A DNA stretch of 64,000 bases, taken from assembly GCA_963824995.1 (NCBI GenBank), contig CAWGRK010000006.1, positions 194,273 to 258,272 of the forward strand. Reading direction: 5' to 3'. Both the position numbers and the translations under genes were made by a program. The notes beneath the pieces were generated by a model. It was given only the letters and a program-made list of their open reading frames with translations. It ran no database searches and had not been told where the DNA came from. This document shows positions 9,142-10,241 of this stretch, one piece after another; position 1 is the first letter of the stretch, and every line of letters starts with the position of its first letter. Origin of the DNA: an uncultured Actinomycetes bacterium. Its GTDB lineage: Bacteria > Actinomycetota > Acidimicrobiia > Spongiisociales > DATADW01.

Positions 9142-9953
9142 TGATCTGTTACAACCGTTCAAGGGCACGACTCCTAGAACGGACGGATCGGTCATTCTGC
9201 CGATCTCCTCACGTCGCCGTGAGGTCCGGACCATCTCTTCATCTCGATCAGTCGTTACGGGATGGCTGGCGTATGGTCTCTGAGGATTCTCAGAATGTGG
9301 ACGGCACTACGGTGGTTCATCGTCGAGGCGTATCGCCGTTATGATGCGAGGTCTGCACCGTGTAGGTGCACCCCTCACGGCGGGCATCATTGTTGACGCC
9401 GACAAGCGAATTTCTCGGCTCGACGCTTAGGCATGTGTGTAAGCGGCTCGGCTAAGCAAGAAGGGCCGAGTCGTGGTTCGTAGGTCGTCGAGCTCGCCGC
9501 ATGTCAGCACACGGAGGAGATCCTCGCGGCTGATCTCATCGTGCACTGCGGTTCCGGTGACGCCTTTCCGCGTACGAAGATCTCGAGGATCTCGACGAGG
9601 GCATCTTCGCTCGATGCGTCTGCTGCGACTGACGCACACACTCGGGTCGTTCATGCCGACCAGGCGAAGTCTTCGCATCTGAAGACGGGCGCTAAAGCAA
9701 CCCTCACCATCTACGGACCCGATCGTGCTGCCTTCGCTTCTGAGTCTTTCCTGCTGATCTTCCGGCGTGGCCATGAAGCCACCCGCCGTCGGATTGTCAT
9801 CTGCTGGACTCGAACAACCGAATGATCCATCTCGGCGGACATCTCAGCGAGTACCGAACGGATACACCGGGTTTTCCAGCATATAGCCAGCTGCACTTCA
9901 CCGCCGTTCCCGCCGGGAGGGGCAGCGACCCCTGCGTCAGGGGTCTTCCTTCT
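9142..9953 (-). mobile_element. Group I intron at 23S position L1931 (812 nt)
   Basis: Interrupts UAAGGU|AGCGAAAUUCC; IGS CGCUGCC (9921-9927) gives U.G in P1 and pairs AGCG in P10; P AUGCUGGAAAA (9872-9882), Q GAUCAGCAGG (9750-9759), R UCAGAGACCAUA (9272-9283), S AAGAGAUGGUCC (9228-9239); P3 GCUGGC/GCCAGC; P9 with GCGA tetraloop. Confidence 0.93.
9255..9800 (-). pseudogene. Single-motif LAGLIDADG homing endonuclease of the L1931 intron, multiply frameshifted
   Basis: DQQERL...IGSVDGEGCFS motif; C-terminal ASTMNHR and RILRDHTPAIP* read through the R/P7 element. Confidence 0.8.
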
Positions 9954-9959
9954 ACCTTA

Positions 9960-10143
9960 CCTGGAACACGGGCTGAAGCTGCCAGCCGCCGGTTCGAGCG
10001 GCCGAGTGCATTCGGCTGAACACTCACGTCGCCAGAAAGCAGCCTTCGCCATCTGACCGAAGCCGACGACCCACATCGGATCGAGGCTCTGGTGATCCGG
10101 TTTCCTGCTGATTGTCCGCACCGAACGGATTGTCACTGCTCAT
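9960..10143 (-). pseudogene. N-terminal fragment of the LAGLIDADG homing endonuclease of the L1923 intron
   Basis: MSSDNPFGADNQQET, WVVGF-(frameshift)-DGEGCF, then GWQLQPVFQV running directly into the rRNA exon. Confidence 0.8.
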
Positions 10144-10241
10144 GTCTGACACTCTACGAATAGGGTGTGACATGAACGAGTACCGTCGGATACTCGGAGT
10201 TCCCAGCATACAGCGAGGTTTTGCAACCGCCATATTGGTTG
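9960..10241 (-). mobile_element. Group I intron at 23S position L1923, 3'-truncated (about 282 nt)
   Basis: Follows UAACUAUAACCGU; P1 AACCGU|C pairs with GGCGGUU (10225-10231) with U.G wobble; P AUGCUGGGAA (10200-10209), Q AAUCAGCAGG (10104-10113); no R, S or P9 before UAAGGU at 9959-9954. Confidence 0.85.

Follow-up and report, generated by a model that had tools for sequence, protein, structure and literature searches.

The only 23S rRNA gene in the genome assembly of this actinobacterium carries two inserts between helices H69 and H70, and the locus most probably consists of one complete and one half group I intron. The complete element (812 nt) occupies site L1931, while the upstream element at site L1923 (282 nt) is a truncated 5′ half that runs directly into a shortened micro-exon. 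Throughout, the window refers to the whole stretch of DNA that was analysed (64,000 nucleotides; C6:194273-258272). The original prediction for the window, two back-to-back group I introns at L1923 and L1931, was right as to both sites and the group I nature of the inserts, and its L1931 intron is complete, but its L1923 intron lacks P7, P3′, P8 and P9. A wider reading, in which the sole 23S rRNA functions although a dead half-intron, kept or trimmed, replaces C1924-C1925 at the foot of H69, and a widespread actinobacterial family of L1931 introns ligates its exons in the absence of a terminal guanosine, is offered tentatively. Sites 1923 and 1931 of the 23S rRNA are classical group I intron sites, and I-CeuI and I-CpaI are the chloroplast endonucleases of these sites.

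The assembly of the host genome (G000; 2.9 Mb, 17 contigs) is 85% complete and contains one 23S and one 16S rRNA gene; at this level of completeness, a second rRNA operon is possible. All features of the operon lie on the minus strand of the window and their coordinates are given in descending order: the 16S rRNA at 14179-12653, the 23S rRNA at 12359-8174 (Rfam RF02541, 2669 bits), and the 5S rRNA at 8115-7999. The 23S gene is 4186 nt in length compared to the 2925 positions of the model, with ~1095 extra bases between H69 and H70. When the region 9000-10400 was aligned to the Rfam LSU model, a single 1095-nt insertion followed the 3′ strand of H69 and the alignment resumed at A1932. The last base of exon 1 is U1923 (10242) and the first base of exon 3 is A1932 (9141), such that 23S numbering and the LSU model bear out all three of the predicted break points (10242; 9959-9954; 9141). 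Substitutions specific to G000 were rare in the 16S (3 of 1525 columns) and in the two 23S exon blocks (4 of 2116 and 1 of 968), while the same count in a congener, G002, gave 5 in the 16S and 18 and 2 in the 23S blocks. By this measure, the mature exons show no decay and their conservation matches that of congeners. The possibility that the 23S gene is a pseudogene was considered and rejected based on the conservation of the exons.

The intron at L1931 belongs to a group of introns designated here as I2-type and was delimited at 9953-9142 in an alignment with 12 relatives. In its P1, three exon bases (9956-9954) and two bases from the start of the intron, together 9956-9952, pair with a guide at 9925-9921, with a U·G wobble at the splice site (U1931·G9923, where U1931 is 9954). 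The two guide bases beside the wobble G are kept in 12 of the 13 aligned I2-type members. Downstream, the L1 hairpin (9945-9927) and P2 (about 9917-9901) are followed by P3 (9891-9886 with 9270-9265), the P element (9883-9872), the Q element (9758-9746), P6 (9746-9740 with 9293-9285), the R element (9284-9264), P8 (9264-9240), the S element (9239-9228), P9 (9224-9207), P9.1 (9205-9186), and P9.2 (9182-9155). The intron ends with a conserved 7-nt motif (9152-9146) and a 4-nt tail (9145-9142). A P10 of 5 bp is predicted between 9928-9924 and the start of exon 3 (A1932-A1936, 9141-9137).

Several lines of comparative evidence identify this element as a group I intron. Across the 13 aligned I2-type introns, the P, Q, R, and S elements are conserved and P2, P8, P9, and P9.1 covary; RNAalifold applied to five compact members recovered P4-P9.1 with compensatory changes in 24 of 94 pairs. 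The P3 helix, in a pseudoknot with P7, was assigned by visual inspection only. The copy in the window carries 19 private substitutions in 355 shared columns and, relative to its congeners, one mismatch each in P2 and P8, with the core strands of P3, P4, P6, and P7 intact. In the covariance-model check suggested with the original prediction, the Rfam group I model (RF00028; gathering cut-off, 50 bits) returned a match below the cut-off on the 3′ part of the second insert (9405-9207; 20.6 bits, E = 0.014) and none in the first. The low score reflects a 444-nt insert in the P6 loop that splits the model, and the ORF-less homologue at L1931 in G002 scored 54.3 bits, above the cut-off. These features mark the second insert, at site L1931, as a complete group I intron, and it is predicted to self-splice.

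The last base of this intron before A1932 is an A, in place of the terminal guanosine (omega G) of group I introns. A non-G end is the rule in the I2-type. With the 5′ splice site placed at the conserved wobble, the last base of the 15 I2-type introns for which both ends are known is A in 10, C in three, and G in two, corresponding to a non-G end in 13 of the 15. Four further 3′ ends of this type have A, C, C, and C, two of them (L178 and L207) from one genome. A conserved 7-nt motif ending in G occurs 3-6 nt upstream of the intron end in this group (9152-9146 in the window). In contrast, the other lineage of L1931 introns possesses a terminal G in 20 of 20 members. The introns found alone at L1923 (10 of 10) and the L1923 intron of G020 also end in G. 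The strands of P7, the guanosine site, are alike among the I2-type members ending in A, C, or G. According to the textbook mechanism, a last base other than G should block exon ligation. To our knowledge, the only precedent for a missing omega G is from Coxiella, where one element is said, by the title of a report by Raghavan in 2007, to lack the canonical terminal G.

An alternative placement of the second intron, at 1933/1934 rather than 1931/1932, would provide a canonical terminal G and is possible, though we consider it less likely than the placement at L1931. Of the I2-type introns with both ends known, 12 of 15 share their first two bases with exon 3 (A1932-G1933 in the window), and with both splice sites shifted 2 nt downstream they consequently end in G. 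Against the shift, the 5′ splice site would have a G-C pair instead of the U·G wobble conserved at U1931, P10 would be cut from 5 to 3 bp, and the placement is impossible in two loci (L013 and L170), where it would imply mutant bases at 1932 or 1933.

The first insert (10241-9960, 282 nt) comprises the 5′ part of an L1923 group I intron, from P1 to P6, and ~62 decayed codons of an endonuclease gene. The end of exon 1 (1918-1923, 10247-10242) forms the 5′ strand of P1 and pairs with a guide at 10230-10225, with a U·G wobble at the splice site U1923; the hairpin was also present in the minimum free energy (MFE) fold. The 5′ strand of P3 (10218-10213), the P element (10210-10199), and the Q element (10113-10101) follow, and a U·G-wobble P1 and P/Q (P4) elements had correctly been predicted for both inserts. 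From 10261 to 9959 the window is colinear with the L1923 locus of G029 (71.5% over 316 nt), the matched part being the first 309 nt of the G029 extract (20 exon nt and then 289 nt from the start of a 773-nt L1923 intron). Position 10241 holds a C and is homologous to the first base of the intron; each of the 15 relatives with an L1923 intron has a U there.

Beyond this point the intron is missing. P7, P3′, P8, and P9 were not found in 10241-9960, an Rfam search of the same interval returned no match even at E ≤ 10, and 10097-9960 could not be aligned with the 3′ halves of the L1923 introns of relatives. Without the guanosine-binding helix and everything downstream of it, the element would be unable to self-splice as written. 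The half-intron is fused to U1926, the join sharing one base between ORF and exon, and thus C1924-C1925 are missing. The micro-exon, which had been predicted to be 8 nt (1924-1931), is therefore a remnant of only 6 nt (1926-1931, 9959-9954), and no G near the 3′ end of the half-intron gives back the canonical linker when taken as the splice site. The proposal that the splicing order of two introns is coupled misdescribes the locus, as the L1923 element is truncated and fused to the micro-exon. The first insert is absent from four congeners (G002-G005), all of which carry the second insert, and in one of these (G004) exactly one base occupies the place of 281 bases in the window.

A search of the whole host genome with RF00028 revealed no other group I piece. 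The 3′ half of the G029 L1923 intron had no match in G000, though this query also missed the paralogous 3′ half of the I2-type intron and was hence insensitive. The sole relative of an L1923 3′ half in the genome, recovered with the G004 copy as query, is within the L1931 intron itself (9600-9426), and part of its R element is missing. In MFE and centroid folds of 10262-9950, no terminal stem was found between the ends of the half-intron; the 5′ end pairs locally as P1 and the 3′ end is unpaired. The half-intron consequently does not have the long stem between insert ends that characterizes an intervening sequence (IVS) of the RNase III type, and no processing signal was found for it.

Both inserts had been predicted to contain a LAGLIDADG ORF. 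No match to the Pfam LAGLIDADG family (PF00961) was obtained for the four reading frames tested from the window (E ≤ 0.01), and the regions hold frameshifted remnants with stops. The corresponding ORFs of relatives are single-motif LAGLIDADG_1 proteins in three of three cases (58-70.4 bits), with 58 bits for the ORF in the L1923 intron of G029 and 70.4 and 68 bits for those in the I2-type introns of G010 and G020, respectively; the ORFs of the L1923-type and I2-type share 37-41% identity. The L1923 remnant (10146-9958) corresponds to residues 4-66 of the 186-aa frame of G029 (tblastn, E = 1.6e-13, 48% identity) and includes one stop and a scrambled, frameshifted stretch, with the match ending exactly at the join with 1926-1931. 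The L1931 intron matched I2-type ORFs by tblastn at 9819-9460 and 9374-9261, in three frames and with stops. On this evidence, both LAGLIDADG genes of the window are dead remnants.

The insert in the P6 loop of the L1931 intron (9738-9295, 444 nt) is non-coding, and G002, G003, and G005 have compact introns that lack it. It is composed of a decayed I2-type LAGLIDADG gene and pieces related to the 3′ half of an L1923 intron of a congener, with an interrupted exon-like stretch at about 9431-9392. The corresponding insert in G004 is 72-77% identical and contains an L1923-type ORF's C-terminal third (58% identity, E = 4e-23), the 3′ half of an L1923 intron (72% identity to window 9600-9426), and a perfect 30-nt copy of 23S 1924-1953. 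An origin of this mosaic of I2-type and L1923-type pieces in a single event was considered, and no derivation was found.

The arrangement of introns at the two sites was explored in relatives of the host. A BLAST search with 8900-10500 produced matches in 26 of 40 relatives (27 of 41 genomes with G000 included), and seven loci were intron-less with a canonical H69-H70 linker. With two wider searches added, the set came to 39 distinct inserts with both flanks, excluding that of the window. Among these were 10 inserts at L1923 only and 23 at L1931 only, the latter divided between the I2-type (n = 10) and the second lineage (n = 13). The survey of related 23S genes that had been proposed also recovered true pairs, with L1923 and L1931 introns on either side of an intact 8-nt micro-exon, in five related genomes (L013, L171, L179, L188, and L191). 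As the loci were found through intron queries, these counts are not frequencies; a rough prevalence is provided by the compact I2-type query, which matched 40 of 401 genomes of the order at E ≤ 1e-8. The compact L1923 intron of G020 (L013) scored 65.7 bits on RF00028, above the 50-bit cut-off. Within this sampling, L1923 and L1931 introns are common in this order of the Acidimicrobiia, and, since L1923-only, L1931-only, and paired arrangements all occur, the two elements are not obligately coupled. The two elements of the window are paralogous, and their P, Q, and R motifs are nearly identical.

A history consistent with these observations begins with a full intron at L1923, belonging to a sister family of the L1931 intron, of which the half-intron would represent the first 282 nt. 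A deletion of ~490 nt would have run from within this intron into the micro-exon and, through a 1-nt microhomology, joined codon ~66 of the endonuclease to U1926. The event would have removed the rest of the ORF, the catalytic half containing P7, P3′, P8, and P9, and C1924-C1925. Such a deletion would be the most economical account of the half-intron. In the transcript, the L1931 intron would start its own excision when guanosine attacks after U1931 (wobble with G9923), and the 5-bp P10 (9928-9924 with 9141-9137) would align the exons for ligation. The product would keep a 282-nt insertion at the base of H69. Because the assembly has no other rRNA operon and the exons of this one show no decay, our leading reading, which we place slightly short of an even chance, is that the cell lives with the allele, the half-intron being either retained or trimmed by host nucleases to leave a split 23S rRNA. 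Against this explanation, a ribosome with a 282-nt insert that has also lost two universally conserved bases next to H69 would be expected to be crippled. The low RF00028 score of the L1931 intron, its mismatches in P2 and P8, and its non-G last base likewise count against the preferred reading of the locus. The lesion may be tolerated or trimmed, it may be very recent, or the assembled allele may not be the working one.

The last of these options has a minor but real likelihood and would mean that the assembly or its consensus is in error, that the allele is defective or carried by a minority of the sampled population, or that an intact second operon was not binned. The ordinary expectation is that the lesion is lethal, the assembly is 85% complete in 17 contigs, and a search of 401 genomes of the order found the fusion junction in G000 only. 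A scan of metagenomes with a 22-base fusion pattern returned 0 matches, and a scan of genomes with a 15-base fusion pattern, which is too unspecific, returned at least 120 loci, none of those in a 23S context. None of the public runs contained half of the sampled words of the locus (best share, 0.11). Contigs from four runs carried only the alleles of relatives (intronless, G004-like, and compact-intron joints), and 9332-9709 was uncovered in all four. A DNA contig (X7, record 28) aligned across the fusion (9942-10002, 6 differences) and was not counted, as it extended 18 nt on one side, under the 31-nt rule. An RNA contig from another sample matched exon 1 and the first 149 nt of the intron with 1 mismatch in 178 and then diverged at the P6 loop, indicating that near-identical L1923 introns with a different interior exist in close kin; this too favors a working allele other than the assembled one. 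Conversely, a join at a 1-nt microhomology cannot come from graph assembly without reads carrying the join, and the fusion locus sits inside a long contig. The four genomes of the order in 1-2 contigs each had matches confined to one 23S locus, though matches are not copy numbers, and the exons of G000 show no decay.

That the half-intron guide and the L1931 core act as one large ribozyme, removing the interval from U1923 to A1932, is very unlikely. Engineered tandem introns offer a precedent (PMC10136302), and the paralogy of the two elements and their near-identical P, Q, and R motifs are compatible with cooperation. The cooperative product would, on the other hand, be without 1924-1931 and hence useless, only 4 of the 6 bases in the L1931 P3′ can pair with the P3 strand of the half-intron (10218-10213), and the L1931 intron already has a complete 5′ half in cis. 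Least probable is that the inserts are group I introns that function independently of each other, both spliced and both equipped with a gene for a homing endonuclease. In favor of this view, both have a U·G-wobble P1 and P/Q elements, and the intact double arrangement is present in five relatives. The sequence itself contradicts it: the first insert is without P7, P3′, P8, P9, and the context of a 3′ splice site, 1924-1925 are not recovered wherever its 3′ end is placed, the four window frames have no Pfam match, and the first insert has no Rfam match.

One complete and one half group I intron therefore remains the preferred description of the locus, and it can be set beside several known systems. 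The single-copy 23S rRNA gene of Coxiella contains group I introns at 1917 and 1951 separated by a 34-nt exon (PMC10136302, PMC4990558). These introns are assigned to subgroups IB2 and IA3, both are complete and splice, and exon skipping is reported for the pair (PMC10136302, PMC4990558). The likeness to the window lies in a single-copy bacterial 23S rRNA gene with two introns around a very short exon in H69-H71. The Coxiella introns differ in that both are complete, whereas the upstream element of the window is a half-intron and the non-G end is the rule throughout the I2-type.

The 23S rRNA of Simkania negevensis reportedly contains an unspliced group I intron, which is said to be the subject, by its title, of a report by Everett et al. 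from 1999. As in the window, this is a group I intron at site 1931 of a bacterial 23S rRNA and it is reportedly not spliced out; unlike the window, the intron is complete and no exon bases are lost. Simkania would be a precedent for the tolerance of a large insert beside H69. The Simkania intron at L1931 is 654 nt with a 143-aa ORF (PMC1995217).

A parallel in position is archaeal. Sequence KP308720.1 has an IB4.7 intron at LSU/1923 (21440-21763) and an IB4.15 intron at LSU/1931 (21772-22514), as listed in Table 1 of Nawrocki, Jones and Eddy 2018 (PMC6125680). The two sites are the same as in the window, the introns are 8 nt apart by the printed coordinates, and both are IB4; the host is an archaeon and both introns are reported as full length (PMC6125680). 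No comment on the adjacency of 1923 and 1931 was found in the portions of that paper available to us (PMC6125680). Introns at sites 1923 and 1931 are assigned to IB4 (PMC6125680, PMC3873408), and by analogy the introns of the window may belong to this subgroup.

Bacterial 23S introns with LAGLIDADG genes are known from other lineages. In cyanobacteria and Thermotoga, the introns at L1917, L1931, and L2593 carry LAGLIDADG genes of the single-motif kind (Haugen et al. 2007, PMC1995217); as in the relatives of the window, there are several endonuclease-bearing introns in which the ORFs begin in P6 and enter the core, though L1923 is not listed and truncated elements are not described in the portions of that paper available (PMC1995217). 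The CPR bacteria possess LAGLIDADG_1-bearing introns at 23S 1917, 1931, 1952, and other sites, many per gene (Tsurumaki et al. 2024, PMC11270868), but belong to a different phylum, and the accessible text does not name 1923 (PMC11270868). A broken intron at site 1931 is found in rnl of the Prasinoderma mitochondrion, where a group I intron that is spliced in trans has been shown by RT-PCR to splice (PMC3873408). It resembles the window in being broken into 5′ and 3′ pieces at the loop where relatives have their ORF, but both of its halves are intact with proper exons (PMC3873408), whereas the window has a damaged exon and a 3′ half that is missing or decayed.

LAGLIDADG introns at L1923 and L1931, and their pairing around an 8-nt exon, are an already known kind of mobile element. 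What is added is that L1923 is occupied in bacteria, a site that goes unnamed in those portions of the published lists of bacterial 23S introns available here (cyanobacteria, Thermotoga, Coxiella, and CPR, a selection rather than a full survey of the literature) and is not mentioned for bacteria in the corresponding parts of PMC1995217 and PMC11270868. The two lineages of L1931 introns, with and without a terminal G, represent a natural test set for ligation without omega G. The window captures a rarely visible stage of decay in the cycle of intron gain and loss within an essential single-copy gene. An imprecise deletion in such a gene is expected to be lethal, and should the allele be real and the cell viable, the H69-H70 linker would tolerate far more than has been assumed.

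Within one bacterial order, the L1931 site of the 23S rRNA gene is occupied by two clearly different group I intron lineages, and the L1923 intron can partner either of them (loci bearing on this observation among the relatives include L011, L014, L016–L019, L025, L161, L163, L176, L180, L181, L186, and others). The complete L1931 intron of the window (9953–9142, minus strand) is of the I2-type. The terminal base of the I2-type introns was a non-G in 13 of 15 cases (A, n = 10; C, n = 3), based on the window (9142–9152) and the relatives' loci L003–L007, L013, L169–L171, L174, L177, L190, L206, and L211; all introns of the second L1931 lineage, from the same order, ended in G (20/20). 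On the strand opposite the L1 hairpin of the window's L1931 intron, Rfam gave a weak hit to isrD that fell below threshold (9892–9951, plus strand; 24.5 bits compared to a cut-off of 37); this hit was taken as chance.

The L1931 intron of the congener G004 (locus L003, contig C7) carries a cargo of three components in its P6 loop, at about positions 1700–2140 of the locus: the C-terminal third of a LAGLIDADG ORF of the L1923 type, an apparently intact 3′ half of an L1923 intron with a terminal G, and 30 nt that reproduce 23S positions 1924–1953 without a mismatch. In effect, this L1931 intron is host to a captured L1923-intron 3′ half together with its downstream exon.

A metatranscriptome contig from another sample (public run X5, record 10) matched window positions 10093–10270 with a single mismatch in 178 nt, spanning exon 1, which ends at U1923 (10242), and 149 nt from the 5′ end of the half-intron (10241–9960), itself the 5′ part of an L1923 intron. 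The contig departs from the half-intron at the P6 loop; therefore, the RNA of a close relative contains an L1923 intron that is nearly identical but differs in its interior.

The 23S genes of three relatives also possess, several hundred bases downstream, an extra stretch resembling the P4–P6 part of the L1923 intron (G020, C1:1577036–1577155; G009, C114:11561–11673; G023, C40:31704–31816), a similarity suggesting that the same family may be represented by a third intron at a later 23S site in these genomes.
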